NCBI GenBank assembly: GCA_048267165.1
Contig: JBLWYD010000001.1
Location: 128,073-192,072, forward strand
Length of the DNA stretch: 64,000 bases
Origin: Bacteroidota bacterium
Lineage (GTDB): Bacteria > Bacteroidota > Ignavibacteria > Kapaibacteriales > UBA2268
Direction: 5' to 3'
A program made the position numbers and the translations under genes. Positions 32,732 through 54,736 of this stretch are shown here, in pieces; within the stretch, counting starts at the first letter, position 1; each line of letters begins with the position of its first letter. A model generated the notes under the pieces. The model saw only the letters and a program-made list of their open reading frames with translations. It was not told the origin of the DNA and did not search any database.

Positions 32732-33399
32732 TACACTCCTCGTGTATTTGGTTCCCATATAAATTTGTGCATCTGCATTTGCATTCTTACTGGCAGATGA
32801 TCTTCTAATATCCAATTCGCTATTTCTATCGGCTCTATCTCACCGAAAACAGGAGAGAATAAAACTTCTCTTACTCTGTTGAATAGATAATATTCACGAC
32901 ATTTATCTACTGCCCAATCGTAGTCGGCTCTATCTTTGATTACGAACTTAACTTCGTCTTTTTCATCTAGCTTGGCTATATTATTATAGTCATTCTTCTT
33001 GTGCATAGCCGAACCGGGGCACTTTAGGTCGAATATTTTCACAGCTTCTTTCGGTACTTTCCCTATGTCTTGTTGCCCATTAGTCTCTATTACTACGTCT
33101 AGTCCACGGCTGAGAGCTACTTCGACTAGTGCACCTATTTCCTTTTGTTCTAGCGGTTCCCCACCAGTTAGCATTAGAAACTTACAATTGTGGCTTTCTA
33201 CTTCTGCGAGTATTTCGTCTATACTCATTAGCTTTTCAGTCTGGTTTCGCTCTAGTGCATACGGCGTATCGCACCAACTGCAACGTAGCAAACAACCTTG
33301 CATACGAACAAATACGCAGGGCTTACCGCTGCGGCTGCCCTCACCTTGTATTGAGTAAAATATCTCATTTACGTTGTACTGTATTTCGTCTTTGTTCAT
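32731..33399 (-). CDS. queE: 7-carboxy-7-deazaguanine synthase (radical SAM)
   Basis: IFYSIQGEGSRSGKPCVFVRMQGCLLRCSWCDTPYA and the LTGGEPL block. Confidence 0.9.
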   Translation of the reverse strand: MNKDEIQYNVNEIFYSIQGEGSRSGKPCVFVRMQGCLLRCSWCDTPYALERNQTEKLMSIDEILAEVESHNCKFLMLTGGEPLEQKEIGALVEVALSRGLDVVIETNGQQDIGKVPKEAVKIFDLKCPGSAMHKKNDYNNIAKLDEKDEVKFVIKDRADYDWAVDKCREYYLFNRVREVLFSPVFGEIEPIEIANWILEDHLPVRMQMQMHKFIWEPNTRGV

Positions 33400-38518: not shown

Positions 38519-39277
38519 TTACAATTTAATAATCTTTAGCATTCTAATCACTAAATCACTCTCATAAATATAAGCAAAATATACACCACTTTGCACATTT
38601 TGTATATCAATTGTACTTCCTATGTACCCGTTTTCTCTAATTAAGTTACCTGTTAAGTCGTATAATTCATACTTTTGGTATAATCTATTGGTAAGGTTTA
38701 TTTTTCCATTTGAGTAATATATTGAATTATCTTCAATTTGTTTGACTACGCTAGTAGGCGATTGAAGATAAACAACTCTTACTTTGAAATTTTGAATAAA
38801 TCTATTTTTAACATAAAACGTTTGGCCATTCACTATATTAGAATCAACTAACGTACCATCTATAGCATCAACTATCCTAACCTCAACTACTTCTTTAGAT
38901 TTTGTACCCTTAGGGACGAAAAAGTAGAAGTCTTTCCCTTCCTCTCTATTACCGAGAATATCTAACTGATATTCTACAGTATCTAAGTTACTAGTTGGAC
39001 GCTCTCGATAGTCAACATCAGTAAATATTAGTTCATCTGGCAAACCATCATATTGTCTAATTATCCTAAACCCCGGCATAATCCCTTCAAAAGGAGGGAA
39101 AGAGGGTAAATCTTTCTCATATTTATCATCATAATATACAGTAGTTGAATCTGAGTACCCAGCTCTTAACAATGTTGCAGTTCCATCATAGTTTACATTA
39201 AGAGTAAACTGTGTGAAATCTACAGCTAATACACTTGTAGTGGAAAACAAAATCAGAATTAGTATTATTTTTTTCAT
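38519..39277 (-). CDS. secreted protein with T9SS C-terminal sorting domain (252 aa)
   Basis: Signal peptide MKKIILILILFSTTSVLA. C-terminus ...SGVYFAYIYESDLVIRMLKIIKL. Confidence 0.8.
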   Translation of the reverse strand: MKKIILILILFSTTSVLAVDFTQFTLNVNYDGTATLLRAGYSDSTTVYYDDKYEKDLPSFPPFEGIMPGFRIIRQYDGLPDELIFTDVDYRERPTSNLDTVEYQLDILGNREEGKDFYFFVPKGTKSKEVVEVRIVDAIDGTLVDSNIVNGQTFYVKNRFIQNFKVRVVYLQSPTSVVKQIEDNSIYYSNGKINLTNRLYQKYELYDLTGNLIRENGYIGSTIDIQNVQSGVYFAYIYESDLVIRMLKIIKL

Positions 39278-39290
39278 AATTACCTCTTTT

Positions 39291-39332
39291 TAAAAAAAAA
39301 TAGGGATAGTACATAACTGTATCTATCCCTAT
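39291..39332 (-). terminator. rho-independent terminator after the 1064-aa gene
   Basis: Perfect 10-bp stem ATAGGGATAG (39300-39309) / CTATCCCTAT (39323-39332). The minus strand then reads TTTTTTTTT. Confidence 0.8.
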
Positions 39333-39359
39333 TATATTCTAATTCAATTTAACTTAAAG

Positions 39360-42300
39360 TTACTTAACTATTTGTAGTCTCATAACTTTGTTGAATGAAT
39401 TACCTTCTATTTTCACGAAATAGTTACCAGAAGAAATACCGTTCGCTTGGAAAGGAACTTGGTTATTATTTGCTTCTAAGTGACCATTGAAAACAGTTGC
39501 AACAGTGTTACCGACAGCGTCAATCAATGTAACATTAACATTACCAGATTCTGGTAAGTTGAAATTAATAGTTGCATTGTTAAGTACTGGGTTAGGGTAA
39601 ACAGAATTTAACGTAGCTACTTCAGCAACTTCAACTTTATTCATTTTGATTGAATTAGAAGAAGCATTGATTTCTACTGAAGAGTAGTTATCAGAGCTGA
39701 TAGTACCGAATACTTCACCAGTAGCAGCATCTGATAGTTCAAATGTACCGTTCAATCCTTTAGCAGAGATTGATACTGGGTATTCTACGTTAGTTAATTG
39801 GATTACCGCTTCGTTGTTATTAGTCAATTCAGTATTACCTTCAAATCTTACATCAAATGATGGTGGAAGTGGTGGTAATTCGATAGAGTTTACGTTAGCG
39901 CTATTAGATACGAATAGAGACTTAGCACTTTGATTGTTGTCAGAAACAACGATTTCAGTTGACATAGCTTTCAATTCGTTTCTATAAGCTAAAGAAGAAG
40001 AAACACCTTCAGATAGTTTAGGATTTGCAGTGCTGAAATAGTAGTAACCATTCTCATCAACTTTAATCCAATAACCTAAACCTGGACGTAATTCATTTAC
40101 TTCTTTATAACCTTCTTTAGTCATATATTTCCAAACACCATGCTCAAGCATATAGTTTTTATCTGGTCTTTGACCGTTTCCTAATGCTCTGAAATCTAAT
40201 GCTTCAACATTAATAGGTACAGAAGGAGCACCAACAGCGTTCCATCCACCTCTAGTATCTTCAGCAGTATAAACTCTTACAGGGTTAATATCAGGACTTA
40301 CTTCAAAGATACTGCTACCTCTAAATACTCTATTTACTTCAGCTTCTCTATTATACTTTAAGAAGTAACCAACACCTGGTCTGACTGTTTCACCAGTTTC
40401 TTGTTGATATGAATTCAAGAAGAAATAGTATGGCTTATTAAGAGCACCAGTCCAAGGGTTTTTATTACCCAATGGTTGTACTGGTAATGATAATAAGTTC
40501 CATCCAACATTAATAATTGGGTTACCTTCATCATCAACATATTCAATTATCTTAGCAGGAGTATATTCAATTATAAATTCTCTAATTCTAGGATCATCTA
40601 TTTTCATTGAATATGCATTAGTTTCACCCGGTACTGGAGTACCTTCAGTCCACATATCAACAGGAGCAAAAGATTTACCATTGTCAGTATCTCTAATGAA
40701 TAATGACGAATTAGGGATAAAGTCTTTTCTGTTCCAAGTGATGATAATAGGATATCTTTGATCTTTATTAACTTTACCTGGGTTAAATTTAACTTTGTAA
40801 AGTAATGAACGTGTAGTATCATCAGAACTTCTAATATCTCTTGAATTAGCTTTAACTTGTTCATCATTTGTAGCGAAATCATCTAAACCGAATGGAGCTA
40901 GTCCTGGTATTTCTTTACCACTTGCATCGATAGGGAAGAATCTAGCATCTAGTTCTGTTTCTAGTAATGGAACATTATATTCTCTTTCACCAAATAATGG
41001 ATCAACACCAATTGTAGCTCTATCACCAGTACCAAATATTAGAGTATCAACTTCACCATCTCTGTTTTCAACAGTTATAGGAATACCATTAAGTTTTCTA
41101 CCTTGAGGGTCTTGTCCTTCTAAAGGTGGTCTGAAGTAAATAAATGTTACTTTAATTCTGATTGGAGAAAGTTCTGCAAATTCAGATTTGAAAGTGATGT
41201 AACCTACATAGATACCTGTTTTTTCAATTTCAGGATTATCAGTAGCATCATCACCAGCTTGAATTTTTGAAGGATCACAAGTGATTTGTAAAGTGATTCC
41301 ACCATCATCATTAGGAATGTCATTTAATTCGTCTCTTTCAGAAGCTTCACCCAAAATACCATTATCGATATAAGGTATATAACCTTCATTAGTTAATGAC
41401 CCAATAGGGTTATTAGGTGGTAAAGTTCTAAACTCTAGCCAAGGTTGATCAGAAACAACTTCGATATCTTTCAATATAGTACCAGCTTCCACATTCAATA
41501 CTTCTAGTGATCTAGTAGCAACATTAGGAAATGGATTTTGGTTTCTGTTAGGATTCAAATCAACAGTCATTGGATCAACTAATTCATACAAATCATCACG
41601 ACCATCAACTAATTTGATAGGAGGTTGAGAACCGATTTGTCTATTAATTTGGAAGCCAAATTTAGGTTGTTTAGTCATATATTGGAACCAAATACCACCT
41701 GGTAATATTCTATTCAAAGGTTGGTTTTTAGTTCTATTGTCCATACCCGCAAGTCCAGTAAACTGTGCACCTAAATTAGACTGATAATTAGGTCTTTGTG
41801 GATTAGGGAAATCTTGAGCAACTTGTGGATCATAATCTCTAAAATCTACAAAAGGTGCTGTTTGTAATATATTCATATCATTATACATGATTGAATCACG
41901 TCCGATATGGAAATATGTAAAATCTAAATTACCTGCTGGTACTCCTTCATCTAATACAGCTTTAAACTTTACATAAAGTAGAATATCAAAATCTTGGAAT
42001 GATAAACTAGTGTTAGGTAATGGTTTATTGCTACTTGCAGTAATAACTACAGCACGACCACGGTTAGTAGTAGTGGGAGTGTTATTAATGTGAGTATAGT
42101 ATGATTTGTCAGGACCTTCACTCCAATCAATTTGGAATCCTTTAGCTAAAGGATCTTTAAGTTTTGCGCCACCTGGAGCAAACTTAGGGTGAGTAGTCTC
42201 GATACCTACTGGAGTTACCGAAGCAGAATCATAAAACAGCTTAAATTGAAAGCTTGTAATAGGTCTTACTGGTAAATCTACAGAGTATTTGTTAGGGTTT

Positions 42301-42554
42301 TCAGCCCATCTGTTATCTATGAATACTGGTACTACGAACTCACGCTCATATTCCGTATTCTTTGGCATTATGATTCTTCCATTTTGGAACCATAAATCAT
42401 TATATCCACCTTCTTGACCAGTCAATGATAAGACTGGTATTTGAGGATGTGTTTGTGCAAACGTACTACTATAGCCGACAATAAACAGCAGGGCTGCTAT
42501 TGCTAGACTAGTTAGTTTGTTTACGCCCTTCACTTTTGTATTATTTCTATACAT
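39360..42554 (-). CDS. large secreted protein with T9SS C-terminal sorting domain (1064 aa)
   Basis: Signal peptide ...GYSSTFAQ. Cohesin-like block ITSFQFKLFYDSASVTPVG near the N-terminus. C-terminus VYPNPVLNNATINFNL...SGNYFVKIEGNSFNKVMRLQIVK. Confidence 0.9.
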   Translation of the reverse strand: MYRNNTKVKGVNKLTSLAIAALLFIVGYSSTFAQTHPQIPVLSLTGQEGGYNDLWFQNGRIIMPKNTEYEREFVVPVFIDNRWAENPNKYSVDLPVRPITSFQFKLFYDSASVTPVGIETTHPKFAPGGAKLKDPLAKGFQIDWSEGPDKSYYTHINNTPTTTNRGRAVVITASSNKPLPNTSLSFQDFDILLYVKFKAVLDEGVPAGNLDFTYFHIGRDSIMYNDMNILQTAPFVDFRDYDPQVAQDFPNPQRPNYQSNLGAQFTGLAGMDNRTKNQPLNRILPGGIWFQYMTKQPKFGFQINRQIGSQPPIKLVDGRDDLYELVDPMTVDLNPNRNQNPFPNVATRSLEVLNVEAGTILKDIEVVSDQPWLEFRTLPPNNPIGSLTNEGYIPYIDNGILGEASERDELNDIPNDDGGITLQITCDPSKIQAGDDATDNPEIEKTGIYVGYITFKSEFAELSPIRIKVTFIYFRPPLEGQDPQGRKLNGIPITVENRDGEVDTLIFGTGDRATIGVDPLFGEREYNVPLLETELDARFFPIDASGKEIPGLAPFGLDDFATNDEQVKANSRDIRSSDDTTRSLLYKVKFNPGKVNKDQRYPIIITWNRKDFIPNSSLFIRDTDNGKSFAPVDMWTEGTPVPGETNAYSMKIDDPRIREFIIEYTPAKIIEYVDDEGNPIINVGWNLLSLPVQPLGNKNPWTGALNKPYYFFLNSYQQETGETVRPGVGYFLKYNREAEVNRVFRGSSIFEVSPDINPVRVYTAEDTRGGWNAVGAPSVPINVEALDFRALGNGQRPDKNYMLEHGVWKYMTKEGYKEVNELRPGLGYWIKVDENGYYYFSTANPKLSEGVSSSLAYRNELKAMSTEIVVSDNNQSAKSLFVSNSANVNSIELPPLPPSFDVRFEGNTELTNNNEAVIQLTNVEYPVSISAKGLNGTFELSDAATGEVFGTISSDNYSSVEINASSNSIKMNKVEVAEVATLNSVYPNPVLNNATINFNLPESGNVNVTLIDAVGNTVATVFNGHLEANNNQVPFQANGISSGNYFVKIEGNSFNKVMRLQIVK

Positions 42555-42582
42555 TAGGACACCTTAAATTATTTATAAAAAA

Positions 42583-43743
42583 TTAATTATTTATTATTTT
42601 CAATATTTTTGTTCTGTTACCATCGGTAACCTTAATAAAGTATATACCTTGCTTAAGAAGCTTTGTATCATATACTTTAGTAAAATCACATACTTTGGAA
42701 TCAATCATATACCCAGTGTAATTATAAACTTCAATCGTTAGTTCTTTATTATTACTTATAATAACACCATTATTATAAATATAATCAACAACATTATCTA
42801 CGGAAGCAATTATTACTGAATCTTTTGTTTCAAGATTCTCTATTTCAAAAGAACTAGTTGGAAAGTTAGTTGCACAAATACACTCTGTGCTTTTAACTGT
42901 TTCCATTATCACATTTACACTTGAAGATTCTTTCTTACTTGACTTTATACTCAAAGTTAAGTTTTTATTATCCTTATTTAGAACTTCTAAGTCAATCAAA
43001 TAACCGTTATCTTCTTCTGGTGTTACATTCTTAACTAAAACAGATTCAGAACCAGTTACTTTTTCAAGAATCAAACTATCATTTTCAATAGTTATTCTTG
43101 TTTGCCAATAGTCTATAGAGTCAATTATTCCAAGATTCAGCGGAACATCTATTACAATAGTACTATCTGCCTTGATTGCTCTTTTATCTTTGCTTATATC
43201 GAATCCGAGCTTTCTATCAGGTTTATCTAGTATCTGACCTTTTATAGTCACATCTTTTATCGTATCTACAGTTCCTTTGAAACCATCAATAGGATAAAAG
43301 TATTTAACTTTGAAGTAAGCATCCTCTTCGCATTCACCTATAAACTTGCCAGCAAAAGCAACAAGCGGCATATCACCATTGACTGGATTCGGAAATGCTG
43401 AAATATCAACAATACCTTCCATTATGATTTCACCACGCTCTTTTTCAAATGTCGTGCTTTTATATTTAAAGAACTGAGATATAGTATTAGTATATAATTG
43501 TCGATTCATTTGTACTACATCTGGGTCAAATTCTATTACTATTTCAAACCCAACCAATGAATCAGATTTTACAATACCTCCCATATAAGGAGCAATTATA
43601 ATATCTTTTTGAAATTCCTTACCACACAAATCTAATGGATTTGTATCCAATATTTCTAAGTTGTAAGTTTTTGACTCAGCTAGGGAGTTGCCTATAAAAA
43701 GCAACCCCAAAGCTAAAATCAAATATACTCTAGAACATATCAT
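42583..43743 (-). CDS. secreted protein with cohesin-like N-domain and T9SS C-terminal sorting domain (386 aa)
   Basis: Signal peptide. LVGFEIVIEFDPDVVQ and GDMPLVAFAGKF blocks. C-terminus GIYFIKVTDGNRTKILKIINN. Only a 2-nt gap to the upstream gene. Confidence 0.8.
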   Translation of the reverse strand: MICSRVYLILALGLLFIGNSLAESKTYNLEILDTNPLDLCGKEFQKDIIIAPYMGGIVKSDSLVGFEIVIEFDPDVVQMNRQLYTNTISQFFKYKSTTFEKERGEIIMEGIVDISAFPNPVNGDMPLVAFAGKFIGECEEDAYFKVKYFYPIDGFKGTVDTIKDVTIKGQILDKPDRKLGFDISKDKRAIKADSTIVIDVPLNLGIIDSIDYWQTRITIENDSLILEKVTGSESVLVKNVTPEEDNGYLIDLEVLNKDNKNLTLSIKSSKKESSSVNVIMETVKSTECICATNFPTSSFEIENLETKDSVIIASVDNVVDYIYNNGVIISNNKELTIEVYNYTGYMIDSKVCDFTKVYDTKLLKQGIYFIKVTDGNRTKILKIINN

Positions 43744-43745
43744 TA

Positions 43746-45614
43746 TTATCTATTGATAATAATTTTTTGAACTTTATTAACATTGTTTCCTTCTAATTTC
43801 AAGAAGTAAACACCTGAGTAAAGTTCGTTACCATTGAAATCATTCGCTGACCAAGGTCTTTGAACTGATTCACCAGCTTTCAAATCTTCATTGAATACAG
43901 TAGCAACTTTATTACCAACAGCATCATATACTGAAAGTGAGTAAGTACCACTATTTTCTACAGCCACTGTGTAAGTAGTGAAACCACTTACATAAGGATT
44001 TGTAGATAAAGAAAGACTAGCGTTAACAACGTCAGTTTGTTCAGTTATAGAACCAACCATTTTGTCATTAACTCTGATATTGTTTAATTGTAAGTTTCCG
44101 TTTAAATTAGTTATATCAACATACAATACTGGCTCAGTTGAAGTAAATTCACCTGTACTAGCAAAGTAAACACCGTTAGATGAGTTGTGAGCTAATTTAA
44201 TTTCGTTGTCTATGTTCAATTCAACATTTTCAACTGTACCGTTAACATCAAAAGAGAATGATAAAGGACCAGTATGGCTATTATTGATATAAACTGGAAT
44301 ACTTGTAATACCATTGTGAACTACTCTTTCGCCTAAAACGATATTATCAGCAGTTACAACTTTTTTACCAGAAGGTTTAATATCATGTATCCAAGGTAAT
44401 GATGGGATATTTGCAGCTAAATAGCTCATAATCCAAGCAGCATCGTGTTCGTTTACTTGATAAAATACTTTTTTCAATGAAGTAACTTCAGAAGGTAAAT
44501 CATCAAAATAGTTCTCACTTTGAGTAGTAACTTCTATTTTTTGAGTCACACCCGGAGAAACAGTTCTGTAGTAATATCTACCACTGTGATTCACATCACC
44601 GTGATAAGCAGCTCTTCTTCTAACACTATCCAAAGGAACTTGAGTAGCCATAGATCTAAGTATCAATCTAACATCGTTAAATGTTACATATCTACTTTGC
44701 GGTAAACCAAAGTGTCTTTCAGAAGGAGTTTTAGAGAAATCAACATCTCCATCACCCCAGAATTCTTCAATGTTCAAAGTTTTTTGAGCAGTAAAAAGAA
44801 TTCTATAGTTAGAAGCACCAGATGGTTGCCAAGCGTTTGATAAGTTAGTACTGTCAGTTGCTTGAGGTACTACACAGTAAGTACTATCCAACGGGTTGTC
44901 TGTACATGGCCATAAACCATTCAAAAAGTCATCAAACTCACCTTTGATACCAACAGAAGCACCTTTAGTGATAACTGTAGTTTCAGTAGTTAAAGTATTA
45001 CCACCAATTTGACCATAAGCGAACTCTATATCACCCTGTGGTGTAGCAGCATCATCTGACTTATATAGAATAACTTGGAAATCAGCAATACTAGATGGCT
45101 TAGTTTTGTCCATAATATTCAAATCTCTCCACTCGATAGTCAACGTTGAGTCAGTTCTCTTGTAAAGGATTCTAGTACGTGTGTACATTTGTAACGCTTC
45201 TATATCAGTTCTGTAAACGTGGTCACCCCAAAAAGGAGCTAAAACGTTTTGTTGATATGTAGAAGGCAAATCTTTAAACAAACCAGTTGGGTTTGCTTGT
45301 TTCAAAAAGTTAGGACTGTCAAATGTAACAAAACCATTCACACAGATCCATAATTCTGTATATACCTCACCATTATATTCAAAAGGGAAGCCGATGCTAA
45401 TCTTAGCATATCCGTCATCCGCATCTTGAATAGCAGGTGGTTTAGTAAAATCAACAGCATCAAGTACAGTACCACCAACGATTGGTTCGTAGTTCTTTTG
45501 TACTAAATGCAGAGATTTGAATTCACCCGGTACATCAGACTTTAGCGTTAAGCTACTTGAAAGTGCTATTACAGCAACTGTCATCGCGGCTATTATGCTT
45601 TTTGTAAGTCTCAT
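43746..45614 (-). CDS. secreted protein with NIDO-like N-domain and T9SS C-terminal sorting domain (622 aa)
   Basis: Signal peptide. ISIGFPFEYNGEVYTELWICVNGFVTF (NIDO-like pattern). C-terminus TNPYVSG...SGVYFLKLEGNNVNKVQKIIINR. Confidence 0.85.
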   Translation of the reverse strand: MRLTKSIIAAMTVAVIALSSSLTLKSDVPGEFKSLHLVQKNYEPIVGGTVLDAVDFTKPPAIQDADDGYAKISIGFPFEYNGEVYTELWICVNGFVTFDSPNFLKQANPTGLFKDLPSTYQQNVLAPFWGDHVYRTDIEALQMYTRTRILYKRTDSTLTIEWRDLNIMDKTKPSSIADFQVILYKSDDAATPQGDIEFAYGQIGGNTLTTETTVITKGASVGIKGEFDDFLNGLWPCTDNPLDSTYCVVPQATDSTNLSNAWQPSGASNYRILFTAQKTLNIEEFWGDGDVDFSKTPSERHFGLPQSRYVTFNDVRLILRSMATQVPLDSVRRRAAYHGDVNHSGRYYYRTVSPGVTQKIEVTTQSENYFDDLPSEVTSLKKVFYQVNEHDAAWIMSYLAANIPSLPWIHDIKPSGKKVVTADNIVLGERVVHNGITSIPVYINNSHTGPLSFSFDVNGTVENVELNIDNEIKLAHNSSNGVYFASTGEFTSTEPVLYVDITNLNGNLQLNNIRVNDKMVGSITEQTDVVNASLSLSTNPYVSGFTTYTVAVENSGTYSLSVYDAVGNKVATVFNEDLKAGESVQRPWSANDFNGNELYSGVYFLKLEGNNVNKVQKIIINR

Positions 45615-45662
45615 TATAAAACCTCTATTATATTATAAATTATTTTTCTTTTTAATAATTGT

Positions 45663-45684
45663 GGTACCCTTTTGCAAGGGTACC
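45663..45684 (-). other. GC-rich intercistronic hairpin without a U-tract
   Basis: GGTACCCTT (45663-45671) / AAGGGTACC (45676-45684) form a perfect 9-bp stem with a 4-nt loop, between the giant gene stop and the next gene. No T-run follows on the transcribed (minus) strand. Confidence 0.6.
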
Positions 45685-45696
45685 GCAAGTTTTGTC

Positions 45697-48600
45697 TTAT
45701 TTAACAATCATCACTTTGATGAAGTCAGAGTTACCACCAGCGTTCATTCTGATGCTATATGCTCCACTGCTTAATTCAGAACCGAAATCAGTTCTTGAAT
45801 TCCACTTGATTTCACGAGTACCTTCAGGATAGAAACCTTGACCAAATACGCCAATTACTTTTCCTACTTCGTCTATTAATTCAAACTCAACATTAGATGC
45901 TTTGTTCAAGTTAAACTTGATAACACTTTCGCCATTTACTGGGTTAGGTGATACGCTAGTTATAGAGTTAGTTGTAGTAATTTGTGTATCTTCTACATCA
46001 CTCATTACATCGTTATAGATAACGAATGCTTTGATAGTTGCATTGATTAAAGTCAATGTTGCAATATTACCAGTTAAGTCAAAAGTAGCATTAGTTGGTG
46101 ATACTGATCTTACAGTAGGATCACTCATCTTGATATGGAAGTAAGAACCATCAGAGATAGGATCTCTTAAATACCAAGTTGAACCTTGTGGGTTTCTAGT
46201 TGCATCATTCTCATCAGGAACAGTTGTAATGTCCCAAGATATAGTTACAGGATAGTTAATAGCAGTTTGACCACTTTCACCACCAGCTTGTATTTGAGCA
46301 ACATAGATTAAGTCAGTTTGACCACTTTCAGGATATATACTTCTCAAGATACCATTGATTGTAGGCAATGTCCATCTTGCGTCGAATACGTCTTGTTGTG
46401 GGTATGGAGGTAATTCATATTCACAATAGTTGTGATCTAATTTACCAACATCTTCACCATCTCTACCATCACCTGTAGTAACATTAGAAGCAGCAACACC
46501 AAATTCTAGAACTTGGAATGCACCGATTGAGTTAGTTACTGTAATAGGAGCTGTAAAGTTAGTTGCTTCAGATAATTTCAATCTAAATCTCATAATAGAA
46601 GTTTCGCCTTCTGCATCTGTAGCTTTGATTTGAACAGTAATTCTACCATCAGCATCAACAGGTACATTAGCAATGTCTGCTGTAAAGATTAAGTTAACTT
46701 TAACTGAATCATTATCAATAGTAGCACCATCTAATATGTATTTGTCTAATTCAACACCTGAAGAAGGTAATTCTACTACTAGAGTTACTTTTTCTTGAGG
46801 AGTAACAGAATCATCTCTTTCAAAGTCTTTGTCAACAACATATATAAAGTTGTTAGTAGTCAAAGAACTGTTAGGATCGATACAGTCAACATCAGGAGCA
46901 AGAGCCAATTGAGGACCTTGATTAGATGCTTCTACAACTAAAGTATAAGTTTCTAGTGCAGGAAGACCATCTTCATCAGTTACTAATACAATTACTTGTT
47001 CAGTTTTAAGTGCATCGCCTACTTCTGGAGTACCATATAGTAAACCACTTTCAGGGTTGATTTTCAACCATTCAGGAGTATAGCCATTAGCACCATATCC
47101 ATTAACATCGCCTTCATCCCAAGTACCAGCTTCAGCATAACAAGGATCTTTAGCTATTGGACCTCTACCACTGTAGATCAACTCGTAAGTATGTTCTTGG
47201 TGGAAGTTAGGGTCTTTAACTTTAATTGCTCTTGAAGAATCAATTAATTGATTATTATAATCAAATCCTTCTATAGCATTGTCTAAAGTTGTAGTTGTAA
47301 TAGTAGGTGCAAAGTTTACAAAAACTTCAAGTTTTTGTTCTAATCTTCCACCATGACCATCATTTACAACAAATACAAATGCTGTATCAGTGTTATACTC
47401 TTCATTTTGTCTATTTAATGGCGCAAGTATTTGATCAACTTCAGCTCTGTCAATTCTAATATTCAGTTTACCTGAAGTAGTAAAGTCATCAGCAAAACCA
47501 TCTATAGTAACTTCATCATCATATCTATAGATATATTTATCAGCCATCCAAATTGGTCTTTCTTGATCGATTAAAGTATCAAGTCCACCTAAGTCATTAG
47601 ATATAATAGTAGAATCAATAACAACTGTATCGCCAGCTGAGATTATTTTGTTCATGAAACCATAAGCAGTTCTACCATATCTGAAATCCCATCCGTGTTC
47701 TGAAGCAGCATAAGCATCTTCAATTTCGTCATCAGTGTTGATGTCGATTTGGAATCTTAATTTGTCAGTTACGTTAGCTTTCAATCTAGGAGTTCTTTCA
47801 TTTGTTTTACCACAAGTTAGAACACTAGGTTCGTATATTGCAATAATGTCTTTAACTGTAGTACCATCAGACTCATATCTGTATAGTTCTTCTCTTGTGA
47901 AGTTCTCATCCAAATATACTGGTGGTTGATCAATTACGAATATTTCAAATTCGTATGAAGTTTTCCAGCCATTAGCGCCTGCAACGTCGATAGTATCTTG
48001 TTGTAAGTATCTAGCTCTATCTACATCATAAGAACTTGCATTGAAGTAAGGACCATAAGTCTCTATAAACTTGTCAATTTGTTCTTGTGTAAATAATCCA
48101 GAAGCTACCATAGAATCTAATGTTCTGTAATGTGGAGGATAATTAGCAGCAGAAACTGCAACTTTCTCACCACCCGGTACTACGTACGGATTAACTGGAT
48201 GACCTTTTAATACAACATGACCTTTAGCATTGTCTTTAAGACTTAATGGATTGCTAGCATAAAGTGTATCTGCTTGTAACCAATTAGCCAAACCAGAATT
48301 TCTAGCTACATCCCAAGTGTAAGTTAAAGAAGTATAGTTATCAGGATCAGCTAAAGAACGTGGATCATAGAAGTTGTTAGAATCAACTGCAGTAATAGCT
48401 AAGATACTATCTCTAGCATTTGCATAGTTACCTGGGTAAGTTCTATCTTCAGTTATGAATATTCTATTAGCAAGATCAGTTATGTAAATAGTATCCATTT
48501 GGTTGTTAGATCTTTTAACAGGGTCTAACGATGGAACTAACTTCATAATAGTATCATTTTGTAATGTAACGATATTACCAGTAAATTCAGGAGGTAGAGT

Positions 48601-51600
48601 AGCTCTAACTATTTTGAATTCAAGACCATCGTCATAAGCAGCTATAACACCTTCTTTCCATAGTACTTGTCTAGATATAACTCTGATTACGTCACCAGTA
48701 TCAACAGGAAGAGCTTCATATCTCTCACCAGCAAAATATGTTACGATATCTTCAGTAATATTAGAAGGATCATTAATAGCAGGTCTGTTACTGTATAAAT
48801 CAGAAACTTTACCTAATTGTCTGAAATCAGCTTCATATTTTCTACCTGGTACAGTTGCACCAACTTCATTATAAGCATTATCTTCCAATTTAGCCATTAA
48901 ACTAAATCCAGCACCAAAGTTAAATAGACCTTCAGAAGTTCTTCTGTATAGTGTATTTGGATTTCTGTTTGTTGAATCAGGAACAAACTCAACTCTAGAT
49001 CTGAAGACTTCTCTATAAGGAGCAGTTTCAGAAACTTGTTGTAAGTTAGTTCTGATATAATCACCAGTAGTTTCGTTTATAACGAAGAATACTGTTTCAT
49101 TTGTAGTTTCAGGTATGTGGTTGCTTCTTTCAGCAAAGCCATCATAATCTGCATGTGATTCTAAGTATAATGGGTATCCGATAGGGTGATAGAAATCACC
49201 ATTGTTATCAGGCATAAATTCAGATTGAAGAGCAGTGATATAAGGGAATTTCAAATTGCCTTGATCATCTAACAATCCAACACAATAAGGATCTCTAGTT
49301 GTTCTTCTTACATATTTTCCATCAGAAGGTTGAGTCGGAGCTACAAATCTTCTAGTAGAGTAAGGGATACCAACTGCAAAGTCTTCGATTGGAGACATGA
49401 TTCTCTTAGAGTAATCAGCAGTTTTAATATCAGTACCTTTGTCATATAAGTCATAGATTTTACCAGACATTAATAATTTCTCATCAATACTAGTTGCAGC
49501 GTGAGTATTTTCATCACCTGTTGCGTTCTCTAACATTATAGGAGTATAAGTATATTCATCGAATATAGATTCGAATGGACCTTGCTCTAAAGGATTAGCA
49601 GAGTTTCTAACAAATGGTAATGCAGAAGTAGTACCACCAGCAACGAAGAATGTTTCATTCAACGCTAATGGATAACCTAAATCATTGATTACATCTACAG
49701 TTACATTTGCTTGAGTTCTACCCCAGAAGTTACCGTTAAGTGGATTAGTTCCACCAAGACCTAAGCCTAAGTTACCAGCCAAAACACCTTTAGTGTTAGG
49801 AGCATCAGGTAAACGAACGATAAATCTAGCATTGTTACCATATACAGAGTTACCTGCAACTGGACCTGTACCTACTGGTAATGGACCTTGCATTTCACCA
49901 TAAATAACCGCACTAGCTAAATCAGAAGATGCTTCGTTTGAAGAAATACCTTTATTACCATCTAATACGATAGGACCAGAAATAGTATTTTGTTCAACTC
50001 CAACATCAGATAAAGCAGTGTTAGCAGAGATTAATGATCTACCGAAGATCAATTTCAAATCAAAGTTATCAGAATAGATAGCAGCACCAGTATAAGCAGT
50101 GTTGTTTAATATTCTAACACGGTTGAAAGAAACTGAGTCAGTTCTGTTCAATTGATTAACATCAGCATTGTCTAAGATATAGATTGCTCCACCAAGACCA
50201 ACACCATTTTCTGGTAAGTTAGTACCTGGGTGCATTCTAGCTACATCATAATGACCAGCATTGCTAGGATTTGTTTCATTCCAAGTAGCACCACCGTCTT
50301 CTGTTTTCAATAAAGTACCATAGTCACCTACAGCATATCCAACTGAATTAGAAGAGAAGTGAATTCCTTGTAAACCAAATCTTGTTAAATCTTCCATCAA
50401 AGTCCAAGTAGCACCACCATCAGTAGTAGATAACATATCGCCATATACAGTAGTTATAAAACCTTTTGTAGAAGATATGAATACTATGTCAGTTAAGTTA
50501 GCAGTTGTACCAGATGCAACTGTATGCCATGAATCACCACCATCAGTAGTAGAAAGTAAAGTACCTCTTTCACCAATGATGAAACCTTTACTTACACTTG
50601 TAAAGAAGATTTTATTTAAGTCATAATTAGGGATTGGAGGAACAACTTCTTCCCATACTGTACCACCATCAGTAGTACGTAGGATTAATCTGTCATCTCC
50701 AACTACGAAACCTGAATTCAAGCTACCATAATAAACACCATTAAGGTTTTGTTGTTGTGGTTGCATTGTATTCCATGTTGCACCAGCATCATGAGATTCG
50801 TAGATTAGACCATTGTTAGTAACAGCATATAAATCATTTTGACCAATAGAATAGAAGTCATTGAATTGATTTAAAGTGTTAGTATTGATGTTGAACCAAG
50901 TACTACCCGCATCAGTTGATTTTTTCATGATACCTTGAGCACCAACGATATAACCAGTACTTGCGTTAACAAATTCTACATCTGTTAATCTGTGATTAGT
51001 GTTTGAAGTTGGGTATTCCCAAGTTTCGCCACCATTTTTAAATTTAACGATAGTACCAAACAAACCAACAGCATAGCCTGTTTGATCCGAAGTAAAGAAG
51101 TTAGATAGAAAAGGTGATCTTGTTCTAAATACGCCTTCAGCGAATTGTGTAGAACCAGAACCCATTTCTTCAATAGCTCTAGCTTCAGAAATAGCTTGGT
51201 TACCTTTAAATTGAGTTAACATTCTTGAGTCAGGAGGGAAGTTGATTATATCACCATAAGTGAATACATCATCTCTTGAGCTCATGCCAACTGCAACATC
51301 TTTTGAGTCATAAGAAATATTATCTGCATCAGATACAAAGTATCTTCTGTTTAAGTTAAAAGGCTCAACCATTGAAAGTGCACCACCGTTACCATTGTAA
51401 ACAGTATTACCATTAAATTCAACACCTTTAACTAAGTTAAGGTCACCACCAGAAGAATAGACTGCTCCACCACCTCTAAGTTGACCAAGGTTCTTATCAG
51501 CTACATTCATACCTACAGTATTGTTCAAGAACATTGTTCTAGATAACTGAACAGCTCTTTGGAAATATGGAGGATTATCAGCAGTAGGGATTTGGAAGTG

Positions 51601-53688
51601 AACCGCACCACCAGCATATCCAGCACTATTGCCTTCAAATCTGACAGGGAATTTACCACCGTAACCGATTAATTCACTTGCATTAATTCCACCAGCACCT
51701 GTTATTGTACCTTGTCTCTTAGAATAGATTGCACCACCCCAAGAAATAGCTGTGTTATTATTGAATTGAATATCATAACCGTAATCTCTAGTTCTTAATA
51801 AATTATCAGAACCACCAATAATAGTAGTTAATACAGGATTAGAGTTTCCATCTACATAGATAGCTCCACCAGCACCTGAAGTGTTACCTTCAAATCTAGT
51901 TGGGTTACTAGCACTTTCTCTTGCAGGACCACCTTTAACAAATAGTCTGTTTAAAGAGTTTTCTACGTATATAGCTCCACCCATAGAGTATAAACCAGCT
52001 ACAGAACCAACAGTTTCGTCAGTTAAGAATTTAGCACCAGTTTTGTTACCTTCAAAATGACCAGCTACTTGTAATGAAGTATATCTACCAGCGTAGATAG
52101 CACCACCACGAGAACCAGCAGAACTACCATTAGATTGGTAGTTATTAGCTTCGTTGCCATTTGCAACAAATGTGTCAGAATTATCAAAATCAACTTCAGC
52201 ACCATTTATCATGATACTATTGTTAATACCAAAACCAACATCGATTTTTCTATTTTCTTGACCTTCAGTTCCAGACATGTAAACAGCACCACCAAAAGCA
52301 GTGTTACCGTAAACTTGAGGATACATAGCAGGTTCATTCAATAAGTCAGATACGATCTTAACTGGAGGAGTACCTACAGTAGTTTGACCATAATTTGCTA
52401 ATTGAACTTTGTTATCGTTGAATGTTAAATTTCTCATTCTACCTAAGTAAAGTGCTAAACGACCATCATCATGTGCCATTCTTGCATAATCAGTTAATGG
52501 CTCAGCACCAGCTTCGTCAATTAAATCAATTGCAGGAATTGGGTTAGCAACTATTATAGAAGAAGGATTACCATCTCTATCAGTTATATTAGGGTTTTTG
52601 TTAGATGCGTAAGTTCCTACAGCAGCGTTAATCTGATTTCTAGCTATAGTAGCTGGAATTTCTGAAGGCGCTTGTAGTAATTGTAATGCACCACCTTTGA
52701 ATCTTGCTTTATTACCAGAAAATTCTACGTTTAATAACCATGTTCTAGAAGAGAACGTAGTAATTGCACCACCACTACCATTAGTTAGCATGTTAATTTT
52801 CTTATTAACTGCAGCCCAATTTGAGTTAGCACCACTTTGATCATAAAGAGGATCACTATCAACAGTAGTATCTTTTTTGAAATTTTCAAAAGTTGCGTTT
52901 CTGAAGAATGCTGATCTTGCACCAGGAAGAACAATAACATGTCCCCACTCTAAAGATACATTATTTATAGGTTGACCTACAAATCTGATTTTGTCTTGAA
53001 CAACGTTTACTGATGAACCACCAATTCTAGACCATGGCTTAACATTTAAGTTAACGTCATTGTTAGGGTCTTGGTTTAATCTACCAGCAACTAACATGAT
53101 CGCTTCTTCAAAAGTTATTATCTCTAAATTTGGATTAGAAATAACTGAAGCAGCGTTCAATGGATTCAACTCATTCAACTGACGAGTTGTTCTATTTAAT
53201 ACAACATTAAACAAATAGTTATATTTGTTTGGGTGAACAGATTTATCTCTTACAGTTGTAACATCGATAGTACGAATTACATCTGGAGATGGAGAGTTAT
53301 TCCCATCAAATAAGAAATAATCTAAATCCGCATAACCAGTCCAGCTTGACGGGTTCTGAGGTGTTCCAGCTATACCCAATGGATCGATACCATGTGGATT
53401 AGCAGTATATGTTGCTTCCGCAAAACCATCAGCGATGATTCTACCACCAGTTGAATCTATTAATCTCCCGTTAGGGTGAAAATAGACAGTTGTACCAGGC
53501 TCAATTATCAATGTACCGCCAACCACATACTCTCTTTCGACAGTATAGATGGAATCCTTTACAAAGACTCTTACATCACCTGGAGCTATCCTTCCGGATA
53601 TTTTAACGGTCTTCTGCGCATATCCTGAACTTGAAGACAGGATAAATGCGAAGGCCATGAGTACGCAAAGACGAATTAATCGTTGCAT
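45697..53688 (-). CDS. giant (2663 aa) secreted adhesin-like protein: Pmp-type FxxN/GGAI beta-helix repeats + BNR-like propeller + Ig/cadherin-like domains + T9SS sorting domain
   Basis: The ATG at 53688 is preceded by GGAGG 5 nt upstream and gives the signal peptide MQRLIRLCVLMAFAFILSSSSGYAQ. About a dozen GGA(I/V/L)(Y) motifs alternate with F.(G/N)N motifs. Seven (D/N)GG.(T/S)W repeats. PEWLKINPESGLLYGTP Ig-like block. C-terminus VSPNPVNGESVIKFNL...SGAYSIRMNAGGNSDFIKVMIVK. Confidence 0.92.
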   Translation of the reverse strand: MQRLIRLCVLMAFAFILSSSSGYAQKTVKISGRIAPGDVRVFVKDSIYTVEREYVVGGTLIIEPGTTVYFHPNGRLIDSTGGRIIADGFAEATYTANPHGIDPLGIAGTPQNPSSWTGYADLDYFLFDGNNSPSPDVIRTIDVTTVRDKSVHPNKYNYLFNVVLNRTTRQLNELNPLNAASVISNPNLEIITFEEAIMLVAGRLNQDPNNDVNLNVKPWSRIGGSSVNVVQDKIRFVGQPINNVSLEWGHVIVLPGARSAFFRNATFENFKKDTTVDSDPLYDQSGANSNWAAVNKKINMLTNGSGGAITTFSSRTWLLNVEFSGNKARFKGGALQLLQAPSEIPATIARNQINAAVGTYASNKNPNITDRDGNPSSIIVANPIPAIDLIDEAGAEPLTDYARMAHDDGRLALYLGRMRNLTFNDNKVQLANYGQTTVGTPPVKIVSDLLNEPAMYPQVYGNTAFGGAVYMSGTEGQENRKIDVGFGINNSIMINGAEVDFDNSDTFVANGNEANNYQSNGSSAGSRGGAIYAGRYTSLQVAGHFEGNKTGAKFLTDETVGSVAGLYSMGGAIYVENSLNRLFVKGGPARESASNPTRFEGNTSGAGGAIYVDGNSNPVLTTIIGGSDNLLRTRDYGYDIQFNNNTAISWGGAIYSKRQGTITGAGGINASELIGYGGKFPVRFEGNSAGYAGGAVHFQIPTADNPPYFQRAVQLSRTMFLNNTVGMNVADKNLGQLRGGGAVYSSGGDLNLVKGVEFNGNTVYNGNGGALSMVEPFNLNRRYFVSDADNISYDSKDVAVGMSSRDDVFTYGDIINFPPDSRMLTQFKGNQAISEARAIEEMGSGSTQFAEGVFRTRSPFLSNFFTSDQTGYAVGLFGTIVKFKNGGETWEYPTSNTNHRLTDVEFVNASTGYIVGAQGIMKKSTDAGSTWFNINTNTLNQFNDFYSIGQNDLYAVTNNGLIYESHDAGATWNTMQPQQQNLNGVYYGSLNSGFVVGDDRLILRTTDGGTVWEEVVPPIPNYDLNKIFFTSVSKGFIIGERGTLLSTTDGGDSWHTVASGTTANLTDIVFISSTKGFITTVYGDMLSTTDGGATWTLMEDLTRFGLQGIHFSSNSVGYAVGDYGTLLKTEDGGATWNETNPSNAGHYDVARMHPGTNLPENGVGLGGAIYILDNADVNQLNRTDSVSFNRVRILNNTAYTGAAIYSDNFDLKLIFGRSLISANTALSDVGVEQNTISGPIVLDGNKGISSNEASSDLASAVIYGEMQGPLPVGTGPVAGNSVYGNNARFIVRLPDAPNTKGVLAGNLGLGLGGTNPLNGNFWGRTQANVTVDVINDLGYPLALNETFFVAGGTTSALPFVRNSANPLEQGPFESIFDEYTYTPIMLENATGDENTHAATSIDEKLLMSGKIYDLYDKGTDIKTADYSKRIMSPIEDFAVGIPYSTRRFVAPTQPSDGKYVRRTTRDPYCVGLLDDQGNLKFPYITALQSEFMPDNNGDFYHPIGYPLYLESHADYDGFAERSNHIPETTNETVFFVINETTGDYIRTNLQQVSETAPYREVFRSRVEFVPDSTNRNPNTLYRRTSEGLFNFGAGFSLMAKLEDNAYNEVGATVPGRKYEADFRQLGKVSDLYSNRPAINDPSNITEDIVTYFAGERYEALPVDTGDVIRVISRQVLWKEGVIAAYDDGLEFKIVRATLPPEFTGNIVTLQNDTIMKLVPSLDPVKRSNNQMDTIYITDLANRIFITEDRTYPGNYANARDSILAITAVDSNNFYDPRSLADPDNYTSLTYTWDVARNSGLANWLQADTLYASNPLSLKDNAKGHVVLKGHPVNPYVVPGGEKVAVSAANYPPHYRTLDSMVASGLFTQEQIDKFIETYGPYFNASSYDVDRARYLQQDTIDVAGANGWKTSYEFEIFVIDQPPVYLDENFTREELYRYESDGTTVKDIIAIYEPSVLTCGKTNERTPRLKANVTDKLRFQIDINTDDEIEDAYAASEHGWDFRYGRTAYGFMNKIISAGDTVVIDSTIISNDLGGLDTLIDQERPIWMADKYIYRYDDEVTIDGFADDFTTSGKLNIRIDRAEVDQILAPLNRQNEEYNTDTAFVFVVNDGHGGRLEQKLEVFVNFAPTITTTTLDNAIEGFDYNNQLIDSSRAIKVKDPNFHQEHTYELIYSGRGPIAKDPCYAEAGTWDEGDVNGYGANGYTPEWLKINPESGLLYGTPEVGDALKTEQVIVLVTDEDGLPALETYTLVVEASNQGPQLALAPDVDCIDPNSSLTTNNFIYVVDKDFERDDSVTPQEKVTLVVELPSSGVELDKYILDGATIDNDSVKVNLIFTADIANVPVDADGRITVQIKATDAEGETSIMRFRLKLSEATNFTAPITVTNSIGAFQVLEFGVAASNVTTGDGRDGEDVGKLDHNYCEYELPPYPQQDVFDARWTLPTINGILRSIYPESGQTDLIYVAQIQAGGESGQTAINYPVTISWDITTVPDENDATRNPQGSTWYLRDPISDGSYFHIKMSDPTVRSVSPTNATFDLTGNIATLTLINATIKAFVIYNDVMSDVEDTQITTTNSITSVSPNPVNGESVIKFNLNKASNVEFELIDEVGKVIGVFGQGFYPEGTREIKWNSRTDFGSELSSGAYSIRMNAGGNSDFIKVMIVK

Positions 53689-53784
53689 AATACCTCCAAT
53701 AAACAAATTATTATTAAAAAATTAACTTTTAGTTTCATTATTATAGTGTTTAGTTTAATTCAAATGCTATTTCGCAATTAAATA

Positions 53785-54495
53785 CTAATCAATTTTTGTG
53801 CCAAGCATTGATAATCTGACTTTAGATTTATTTCCAAACTCCGAATTCTCGCTTAACTCTACTACTGATTGATATATATTTTTTGCATCTTCTTTTTTAC
53901 CAGCTTGCTCAAAGTTCAATGCGGCAAAGAATAAGTATTTAGATTTTAGCACATCTTCATCTAATTTGTCAGCTGCTTTCTTATAATTTCCCGCAGCACT
54001 TTCTAACTTACCATCTTCTTCATCACATAGTGCTAAACCTGCATAAGCTCCTGATTGCACGACTTCCGACTTGCTATCAGATGCTTTATCAAAGTAATTC
54101 CTTGCATCTGCAAATTGATTAGAGTTAACATAAGCGTTACCTGCGTATAGTGCAGCTAACTTACCTTCATTAGTTCCATCATACTTATTAGCTATCTCTA
54201 CTAGACCCATTGCATCAATTCCTATAGAAGTAGTGCCACCATCTAGAGCTACAGCGTAGTTACCAGAATCAAATTCAGGTAATATTTTTGATAATGCCAT
54301 AGCAGCTTCTTGAGTTGCTTTTTCTGTTTGACTTGCAGAGTAATAGTAATAACCTACTGCAGCTAATACAATTACAATGATTATTCCAAATATCGTTCCG
54401 TTCTTTTTGAGCTTTTGAGCCGATTCTTCATCAACTAAATTCTCAGTAAGCTTAGTTCCGATTTTTAATTCTTCTTGTTCTTCCGAATGGGACAT
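53785..54495 (-). CDS. single-pass membrane protein with TPR-like repeats (YfgM-like architecture)
   Basis: One TM helix (GIIIVIVLAAVGYYYY) followed by Ala/Tyr/Asn-rich helical repeats (AALYAGNAYVNSNQFADARNYFDKA, AAGNYKKAADKL, FAALNFEQAGKKEDAKNIY). Confidence 0.75.
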   Translation of the reverse strand: MSHSEEQEELKIGTKLTENLVDEESAQKLKKNGTIFGIIIVIVLAAVGYYYYSASQTEKATQEAAMALSKILPEFDSGNYAVALDGGTTSIGIDAMGLVEIANKYDGTNEGKLAALYAGNAYVNSNQFADARNYFDKASDSKSEVVQSGAYAGLALCDEEDGKLESAAGNYKKAADKLDEDVLKSKYLFFAALNFEQAGKKEDAKNIYQSVVELSENSEFGNKSKVRLSMLGTKID

Positions 54496-54607
54496 TTTAT
54501 AATCCTTTTATATTCAATTACTTATAAAAAATAAATGTACAACAAGCACAATTAAATAATTATGCACACTTTCTATTGTACCTAGCATACAAATATATAA
54601 CAACAAA

Positions 54608-54636
54608 CCCGAATATCCAATTATTGAATATTCGGG
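54608..54636 (-). terminator. rho-independent terminator after the E1 gene
   Basis: Perfect 9-bp stem CCCGAATAT (54608-54616) / ATATTCGGG (54628-54636). T-rich on the minus strand after the hairpin. Confidence 0.75.
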
Positions 54637-54736
54637 CGTTATCTTTTTATCTTATTTATTTAGCTTGTGTGTAATTTTGATATTACAGTGTCAGATTATT
54701 TCCACACAAAATCCTTGTATTGTTTTACACACTTAT

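Follow-up and report, generated by a model that had tools for sequence, protein, structure and literature searches.

We analyzed a 64,000-nucleotide stretch of the genome of a Bacteroidota bacterium (assembly GCA_048267165.1, contig JBLWYD010000001.1, positions 128,073 to 192,072; hereafter the window) that carries five consecutive genes for predicted type IX secretion system (T9SS) cargo proteins. We observed that these genes lie within a nine-gene block of the Kapabacteria-like Bacteroidota, which provides a clade-wide, ordered set of five proteins with type-A T9SS C-terminal sorting domains (CTDs) and without a detectable catalytic domain. The existence of a dedicated, co-inherited block is well supported, because the CTDs were detected, the orthologues were not dispersed and no enzyme-family matches were found. 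A T9SS surface-protein operon is a kind of locus already known; what is new here is the nine-gene unit, a hairpin conserved after its largest gene, a domain shared by three of the five proteins (module X) and a long region of the largest protein that has no known relative. Overall, the locus is real, non-random and more extensive than a previous sequence-only reading of the window had described.

All nine genes are on the minus strand. In the direction of transcription, the block begins with a tetratricopeptide repeat (TPR) gene encoding 236 residues (TPR236, 53785-54495), directly upstream of the gene for a giant protein. The longest open reading frame (ORF) of the giant (45697-53706) has 2669 residues from a TTG codon, and an ATG start at 53688, with GGAGGT 5 nucleotides ahead of it, gives 2663 residues (45697-53688). 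The other cargo genes encode proteins of 622 (p622, 43746-45614), 386 (p386, 42583-43743, which begins 2 nucleotides past the p622 stop), 1064 (p1064, 39360-42554) and 252 residues (p252, 38519-39277). They are followed by the glycosyltransferase gene GT2 (37088-38329; PF00535, E 2.5e-34), a gene for a 264-residue putative outer-membrane protein (OMP, 36325-37119; PF13505, E 4.7e-5, below the cut-off) and, as the last gene of the conserved block, GT9 (35248-36324; PF01075, E 6.2e-14). The sequence-only reading had described five co-directional cargo ORFs of these lengths, with gaps of 82, 2, 28 and 82 nucleotides, and this description was borne out. Its five-gene unit was drawn wrongly, the conserved block being composed of the TPR gene, the five cargo genes, GT2, OMP and GT9. 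A terminator-like hairpin with a T-rich tail (54607-54637, minus strand) follows an E1 dehydrogenase gene; it closes that preceding unit and is the upstream limit of the nine-gene unit.

Gene order, junctions and hairpins in relatives

Related loci were collected by scanning one genome per GTDB species with a p622 profile, which gave 70 loci from Kapabacteria-like Bacteroidota, and the order of the block was traced by tblastn of eleven window proteins and by an independent ORF-based reconstruction. The orthologues were not scattered: in nearly all of the 70 related loci, wherever the contig was long enough, they were adjacent and in the order TPR-giant-622-386-1064-252-GT2-OMP-GT9. This order persisted down to 33-48% protein identity, and the database gene calls concur. 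The giant was found in 68 loci, the TPR gene upstream of it in 60, and the p252, GT2, OMP and GT9 positions were occupied in 53, 53, 52 and 49 loci, respectively. Orthologue lengths were likewise stable, with about 240 residues for the TPR protein, 2393-2939 for the giant, 610-733 for p622, 376-425 for p386, 1015-1108 for p1064, 247-279 at the p252 position and about 250 for OMP. The p252 orthologues were too diverged for tblastn, and the 53 loci counted for p252 are those with a positional equivalent bearing a signal peptide and a CTD-like tail. The mean family distances of the giant (0.64) and p622 (0.79), compared to 0.47-0.51 for the cytoplasmic glycosyltransferases, indicate that both proteins are conserved nearly as well as these enzymes.

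The flanks were more variable: upstream, the E1 dehydrogenase gene was present in approximately 36 of 60 loci; downstream, RlmD occurred in 15 of about 49. Since the flanks are less stable than the block, the nine genes are the conserved unit. Three loci departed from the common order. In L059 (8574-13904), p386 is missing and p1064 starts 156 nucleotides after p622, the only such gap among the loci. In L026 and L027, p252-GT2-OMP-GT9 does not follow p1064, and other ORFs stand in its place, including one of about 1010 residues (p1064-like in L026). These two loci suggest that the block consists of two separable sub-units. Many metagenome-assembled genomes (MAGs) that carry the block are labelled Hyphomicrobiales, Desulfobulbaceae, Chloroflexota or Chloroherpeton (L011, L013, L015-L017, L022, L028, L034 and others), and these labels are probably wrong. 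The current NCBI class name for the group is 'Eximiradi'.

We then consider the junctions between the genes, for which the gaps are lower bounds, ORF starts having been placed at the first start codon. Median gaps were -1 nucleotide for p622-p386, 16 for p386-p1064, 15 for p252-GT2 (9 by an independent gene call), 7 for GT2-OMP and 4 for OMP-GT9, and they reached 83 for TPR-giant, 72 for giant-p622 and 89 for p1064-p252. The tight or overlapping 622-386-1064 junctions suggest coupled translation.

Two of the three wide spacers contain a conserved RNA structure. As previously read, a terminator lies after p1064 (39291-39332, minus strand; ATAGGGATAG...CTATCCCTAT, a 10-bp stem followed by T9). 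It had been taken as the only convincing terminator of the run; it is real, but a second strong stem-loop, between the giant and p622 (45659-45688, minus strand), with a poor T-tract instead of a proper T-run, had not been counted, and its position is kept in relatives. We scored the best 45-nucleotide fold per spacer in the relatives against a folding free energy (dG) threshold of -15 or lower. The giant-p622 spacer (L002-L070) passed in 56 of 56 loci (median -22; T-run in 6 of them), the p1064-p252 spacer in 44 of 46 (T-run in 27 of them) and the TPR-giant spacer in 0 of 54. The stem sequences after the giant differ between lineages, so the structure is what is kept, and this hairpin could be an attenuator, a 3'-end stabilizer or a processing site. 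The stem of the terminator after p1064 is similar (ATGGGCAAC...GTTGCCCAT) across many lineages (L010-L070) whose proteins are about 35% identical, which is unusual for a plain terminator. The sequence-only reading had grouped p252 with the other four cargo genes, and this grouping did not hold, as the conserved terminator splits p252 off and joins it to GT2-OMP-GT9. Taken together, the locus seems to fall into three expression modules, written as [TPR] [giant] / hairpin / [622-386-1064] / terminator / [252-GT2-OMP-GT9], the last being detachable (L026 and L027).

Rate covariation between the families was calculated from pairwise distances controlled for GT2 and GT9 divergence, with the families equalized to 180 random columns. 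Residual covariation was 0.49 for giant-p1064, 0.46 for giant-TPR, 0.44 for giant-p622 and 0.42 for p386-p1064, compared to 0.17-0.33 for the pairs with p252 or OMP and a within-protein ceiling of 0.62. These values lend weak support to a putative functional core made of TPR236, the giant, p622, p386 and p1064.

Domain content of the encoded proteins

Above the 23-bit cut-off of TIGR04183, the NCBIfam model of the T9SS type-A sorting domain, we found p252 (23.6 bits), p1064 (37.7), p386 (27.9) and p622 (34.4), with matches ending 1-5 residues before the stop. The tail of the giant (residues 2585-2667; 45706-45954, minus strand) was just under the cut-off (20.9 bits, E 2.6e-4) and was rescued by profile-profile comparison with its neighbours, as hhalign gave 98.3-99.1% probability for its alignment with the tails of p622 and p1064. 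In addition, the tail of the p386 family matched the CTD of a solved Flavobacterium T9SS substrate (8glk_D, E 3.6e-7). These profile matches indicate that all five cargo proteins carry type-A T9SS CTDs. The 'PNP' signature by which the domains had first been recognized is literal in the giant and p1064 only; p622 has 'NP', and p386 and p252 lack the signature. By eye, all five N-termini show a basic n-region, a hydrophobic h-region and an AxA-like site, and the AlphaFold2 (AF2) models of p622 and p1064 start with a helix followed by a low-confidence linker.

At least four CTD genes besides the five are present within the same 64 kb: 27005-28387 (minus strand), with a Ycf48/BNR propeller like that of the giant, 31217-32815 (minus strand), 6522-7043 (plus strand) and 7050-7616 (plus strand). 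T9SS cargo genes are very dense in the source genome and, because of this density, the earlier argument from a usual scattering of such genes carries little weight as a baseline in this case. By our own rough arithmetic, the chance of a run of five CTD genes is about 0.003. Since the synteny is conserved, a chance origin of the run is irrelevant. No T9SS core gene was found among the scanned ORFs of the window.

The giant consists, in order, of a beta-helix of PMP repeats with a propeller insert, a conserved region of unknown fold, a He_PIG immunoglobulin (Ig) domain, module X and the CTD. The repeats match Chlam_PMP (PF02415), which is beta-helix-forming. The Ycf48/BNR beta-propeller (residues ~861-1147; 50266-51126, minus strand) matches PF14870 (E 1.3e-33) and the Ycf48 structure 5ojp_A in the PDB (E 7.8e-17). 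Profile self-comparison placed PMP repeats on either side of the propeller, which is therefore an insertion within the beta-helix. It is also the least conserved portion of the giant, and in one lineage (L073 2730-9914; also L031, L032, L036 and L058) the giant has about 2400 residues and no propeller, the rest of the block being unchanged. The central region (residues ~1330-2120; 47347-49719, minus strand) is among the most conserved parts. Over residues ~1150-2120 (47347-50259), mean column identity is 48-55%, with dozens of invariant D/E/R/N/H/W/Y residues, and sequence profiles gave no Pfam or PDB relative of this stretch, only faint PMP-repeat matches at its start. Approximately 800-1000 residues of the giant thus appear to be without a known relative.

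In the AF2 model of p622 (pLDDT 85.5), an N-terminal beta domain leads into a helix/loop region, which two beta-sandwiches and the CTD follow. Family members are full-length (610-650 residues among database matches, up to 733 in the genomic loci) and belong to MAGs labelled Kapabacteria, Kapaibacterium or 'Ignavibacteria' in the source records. The most conserved core (residues 278-412; 44379-44783, minus strand; WGDGDVDFSK ... RRRAAYHGDVNHNGRYYY) is rich in Asp, has invariant columns and may bind calcium. A dockerin (PF00404) has two tandem 22-residue segments, each with a 12-residue calcium loop leading directly into a helix; in p622, the DGDVD and DVNHNG loops are separated from the helices by insertions of 15-40 residues. 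A dockerin-like core was rejected, as its profile matched no dockerin in the PDB at E <= 10 and PF00404 matched none of 21 orthologues at E <= 0.1. The 'NIDO-like' description given to p622 was not sustained either: PF06119 matched neither the p622 of the window nor any of 21 orthologues (E <= 0.1), and just 2 of 120 listed homologues have a precomputed match to it. Foldseek with the full-length model returned tandem Ig/CTD matches and none to the N-terminal domain or the Asp-rich core, and the whole-family profile matched only CTD/FlgD-Ig structures in the PDB.

In p386, an N-terminal part of about 140 residues is conserved, with invariant Cys40 and Cys138, and is followed by a variable middle and the CTD. 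For p1064, the AF2 model (mean pLDDT 86) is of beta structure throughout, folded into roughly ten beta-sandwich domains. Its Foldseek matches were multi-Ig proteins (hydin, complement MG domains), AgI/II adhesins and an archaeal S-layer protein (7ptp_A, E 1.4e-5, TM score 0.10-0.13, a generic fold match). A further generic match to an S-layer protein, Sap 8rw9_E (E 0.027), came from the PDB profile searches of the p622 and p1064 families. The p1064 family comprises 115 full-length clusters, after which the matches fall sharply from E 1e-108 to 1e-5 and concern the CTD only.

The sequence-only reading had also proposed cohesin-like domains. Weakly in favor of this proposal, the p1064 model matched cohesin 6kgd_A (CaCohA2) with a Foldseek probability of 1.0, a TM score by target of 0.53 and 14% identity, and 6kgc_A and 2w1n with TM scores of 0.47 and 0.38, many generic Ig-like matches ranking above these. 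Pfam Cohesin (PF00963) gave weak matches in 5 of 49 p386 orthologues (best E 8.2e-4), and cohesin 4dh2_A was the only PDB hint outside the CTD for the p1064 profile, at a sub-significant E of 0.24-0.93. All of this stays below the family thresholds: neither p386 nor p1064 of the window gave a PF00963 match, and the Pfam search found no cohesin in any of 46 p1064 N-termini. The p386 family was also compared with the p1064 N-termini, and hhalign (probability 14.7%) gave no support for paralogy of the two putative cohesin-like domains.

The smallest cargo protein, p252, is composed of module X (residues 25-166; 38780-39205, minus strand) and the CTD. We found the same module in p1064 (residues 492-671; 40542-41081, minus strand) and in the giant (residues 2387-2572; 45991-46548, minus strand), the latter aligning by hhalign with p1064 492-671 at 97.8% and with p252 at 97.3%, and the three copies are homologous at this 97-98% probability. 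Module X is a beta domain of about 150-180 residues with the motif FG..AT.G.D...GE.ELPP.PP..FDARF ... YP..I.W ... NM. Among 1.84 billion proteins searched, an E threshold of 1e-3 gave 1310 representative proteins that match its profile (443 of them at E <= 1e-10), and these vary widely in length and architecture. In ten matched proteins that were scanned, no Pfam family covered the stretch, and most of them had a T9SS CTD with FN3, Big_9, dockerin or BNR domains. These architectures mark module X as a widespread, unmodelled building block of T9SS cargo and not as a private link between the genes of the locus; we regard it as a candidate for a new domain family in such cargo.

The predicted TPR membrane protein upstream of the cargo genes, part of the original description, was also borne out. 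TPR236 matched PF09976 (TPR_21) over residues 30-221 with 35.6 bits, above the cut-off of 25.5, and has a single N-terminal hydrophobic stretch, GTIFGIIIVIVLAAVGYYYY, at residues ~33-52; NCBIfam gave a weak PorW/SprE TPR match. From this architecture, it is a predicted inner-membrane-anchored protein of the YfgM type.

At the other end of the block, GT2 is a polyprenyl-phosphate glycosyltransferase of the ArnC/GtrB/PgfS type (NF007986, E 1.8e-57, below the equivalog cut-off) and GT9 is heptosyltransferase-like (TIGR02193, E 5.8e-18, below the cut-off). The types of these two enzymes fit the modification of an envelope glycolipid. OMP is a small outer-membrane beta-barrel-like protein according to its sub-threshold match to PF13505 (OMP_b-brl). 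Its identification as PorP/SprF, PorQ or PorT was tried and rejected, as Pfam gave no match to these and NCBIfam no match. The GT2 ORF has 391-428 residues in the clade of the window and about 335-360 in most relatives; the additional ~70-100 N-terminal residues are rich in K/E/R and reflect an extension specific to this clade or else an ORF drawn too long. Because the GT2 start may be over-extended, the p252-GT2 gap of the window is uncertain (at least 189 nucleotides).

As stated in the sequence-only reading, no hydrolase was recognized: Pfam and NCBIfam assigned no catalytic family to the five cargo proteins, scans of orthologues and profiles gave no enzyme family for any of them, and none of these five matches an independent enzyme family. 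Elsewhere in the window, three ORFs of 518-562 residues (8343-9899, minus strand; 11909-13552, minus strand; 28606-30294, plus strand) had no Pfam match at E <= 1e-4, and the ORF at 62308-63999 (plus strand) carries HHH_8/HHH_5, DNA polymerase beta thumb and PHP domains, as in a PolX-type polymerase. Rfam and tRNA scans of the window gave no matches. A sigma-70 promoter scan yielded a lower number of sites than shuffled sequence did; its result was set aside.

A single surface structure and its alternatives

Our preferred explanation, in which we place about even confidence, is that the four core cargo proteins (giant, p622, p386 and p1064) would form one hetero-oligomeric surface structure exported by the T9SS. 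That the locus is a lineage-defining cell-envelope locus of the Kapabacteria-like Bacteroidota is part of this best explanation, and its chances seem to us similarly balanced. One multi-component surface structure had been proposed before; the dedicated block is what stands of this proposal, and we infer the single structure from the linkage, the tight 622-386-1064 junctions and the modest covariation. According to this model, the cargo proteins would cross the inner membrane by Sec, with the YfgM-like TPR protein as a possible periplasmic holdase, then cross the outer membrane by the T9SS and become fixed to the surface via their type-A CTDs. There, the giant, p622, p386 and p1064 would assemble into one adhesive or coat-like complex, with putative protein-protein interfaces provided by the beta-sandwich modules, the cohesin-like ones and the invariant, Asp-rich p622 core. 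The RNA hairpins after the giant and p1064 may set the relative expression of the three sub-units of the locus, and p252 with GT2-OMP-GT9 would constitute a second, separable sub-unit that probably makes or modifies an envelope glycolipid or glycan by which the complex is anchored. The fullest version of this model is an undescribed, Kapabacteria-defining envelope organelle, either a coat or an adhesion/motility apparatus, with a beta-helical giant that contains a ~800-residue domain of new fold, p622 as an Asp-rich, calcium-dependent connector, p386 and p1064 as cohesin-like receptors, its own Sec-side TPR chaperone, anchor-glycan genes (p252-GT2-OMP-GT9) and subunit ratios set by hairpins; taken as a whole, we consider this unlikely.

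Several observations weigh against a single structure. The cohesin signal lies under the family thresholds and searches of the p622 core found no dockerin. The conserved ~800-1000-residue region of the giant, rich in invariant polar residues, could be catalytic. Linkage extends in part to the housekeeping genes for the E1 dehydrogenase and RlmD, and some of it may reflect a chromosome neighbourhood that is stable in general; synteny alone is therefore not to be over-read. The loss of p386 in L059 and of the propeller in one lineage means that not every part is obligatory. Differences in covariation are modest and retain some phylogenetic signal. Finally, module X, with its 1310 proteins of diverse architectures, is unspecific to the locus.

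Alternatively, the cargo proteins could each be a T9SS-anchored adhesin or a binding protein (for particles, polymers or other cells), co-regulated and physically independent, the linkage serving shared regulation only. We regard this as possible, albeit doubtful. PMP-repeat beta-helices, BNR propellers, He_PIG domains and Ig-like sandwiches are typical modules of stand-alone adhesins, module X is common in many unrelated T9SS cargo proteins, p386 and the propeller of the giant can both be lost, and CTD genes are very dense, at least four more occurring in the same 64 kb. However, independent adhesins usually diversify fast, whereas the five families keep their order, their length and 35-50% identity class-wide, the giant comes close to cytoplasmic enzymes in its conservation, and the tight or overlapping 622-386-1064 junctions suggest coupled translation. 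Such class-wide conservation at a conserved chromosomal site would also suit a block that has housekeeping duties and yields no end-product surface structure; it could serve envelope biogenesis or assist the T9SS, for instance as an analogue of the PorU/PorZ/PorQ attachment machinery or in the assembly of lipopolysaccharide or an anchor glycan. The neighbours are of the appropriate kind (a YfgM-type TPR protein, an ArnC/GtrB-type glycosyltransferase, a small OMP and the heptosyltransferase-like GT9), PorU and PorZ are themselves CTD proteins which the p622 model and profile match (6za2 and 5m11, respectively), and the giant carries a beta-propeller, like PorZ. Nevertheless, the p622 matches cover the C-terminal Ig/CTD part only (TM score 0.08-0.13; PorU residues 1036-1153), Pfam and NCBIfam found a C25-like peptidase domain in none of the five proteins, OMP is not recognizable as PorQ, PorP or PorT, and the single propeller of the giant (PorZ has two) is dispensable in one lineage, which makes this role improbable.

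To a polymer-degrading or -modifying system with an unrecognized catalytic domain, in which the giant would contribute a new lyase or hydrolase by its beta-helix or its central region and the smaller proteins would bind the substrate, we attach the lowest credence. Right-handed beta-helices often bear polysaccharide lyase or hydrolase sites; the giant has, at residues 1150-2120, dozens of invariant residues at 48-55% column identity and no known relative; and its propeller weakly matches the NCBIfam 'F510_1955 family glycosylhydrolase' (E 5.8e-13, below the cut-off). Yet neither the five proteins nor their orthologues gave a carbohydrate-active enzyme or peptidase family, the repeats of the beta-helix belong to the Chlam_PMP adhesin type, and for nutrient uptake one would not expect invariance between habitats as diverse as groundwater, hot springs, sediments and bioreactors, the sources given in the record titles.

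Kapabacteria-like Bacteroidota occur widely, from sediments and groundwater to hot springs and bioreactors, and few features that we saw in their genomes are as stable as the nine-gene block, which encodes about 5000 residues of predicted surface protein to which no function is assigned, among them families and a ~800-1000-residue region for which relatives are not known. If the preferred reading of one structure is right, the locus would represent a new type of T9SS-built surface assembly and a test case for how T9SS cargo is organized into complexes, a question otherwise studied in few model Bacteroidota. In addition, the p622 and p1064 families, full-length and clade-restricted, offer a lineage marker, and module X, which more than 1300 representative proteins contain, could be turned into a new family model.

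Comparison with known systems

In the library searched, we found no paper on this locus and no account of the cell biology of Kapabacteria-like Bacteroidota. By its domains, the block would belong with type-A CTD cargo and with YfgM/TPR_21 proteins, and it does not appear to belong with cohesin-dockerin, NIDO, SprB/SprF or PorU/PorZ systems. Individual components resemble proteins described elsewhere. TPR236 shares its N-terminal anchor and TPR_21 domain (PF09976) with E. coli YfgM, a Sec-associated periplasmic TPR protein, and it lies directly upstream of a gene for a beta-propeller envelope protein as yfgM lies upstream of bamB; here, however, the downstream gene encodes a 2663-residue T9SS cargo protein instead of a BAM lipoprotein, and a chaperone role for TPR236 would be by analogy. 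The giant has repeats of the GGA(I/L/V) type and presumably a beta-helical adhesin passenger in common with the chlamydial Pmp proteins (PF02415). Unlike these type V autotransporters, it is a T9SS cargo protein with a propeller insertion, about 800 residues of unknown fold and Ig modules.

Among whole operons, sprC-sprD-sprB-sprF of Flavobacterium johnsoniae likewise combines a giant repetitive T9SS adhesin with accessory proteins and a small outer-membrane protein. SprB has a type-B CTD and a PorP/SprF partner, whereas the CTDs of the block are of type A, its OMP is without a PorP/SprF signature and there is no sequence similarity. In the Cloacimonadota, 'Ca. Stygibacter' has been proposed to build a cellulosome-like structure on an inferred CTD-anchored cohesin scaffoldin (PMC8542988), which resembles the block in its FCB-group origin, in the T9SS CTD on a non-catalytic protein, which there carries cohesin modules, and in the multi-protein surface assembly proposed (PMC8542988). 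Stygibacter has bona fide InterPro cohesins and dockerins, the latter on GH18, GH57, S8 and C25 enzymes (PMC8542988); in contrast, the block has a sub-threshold cohesin signal, lacks a detectable dockerin and carries no attached enzymes.

By analogy, the locus would work most like the tfsA-tfsB operon of Tannerella forsythia, of which it is no demonstrable family member. TfsA and TfsB are T9SS CTD glycoproteins that form the surface lattice of an S-layer (PMC4175972). No sequence similarity to them was found, the block has five cargo proteins including a beta-helix giant compared to two, and it is kept class-wide whereas TfsA/TfsB belong to one genus. The likeness lies in the architecture: both loci consist of adjacent genes for large, non-catalytic, multi-beta-sandwich CTD proteins, which in Tannerella are exported by the T9SS and retained on the surface as one structure (PMC4175972), and genes for glycosylation or glycolipids are relevant to anchoring there and may be so in the block.

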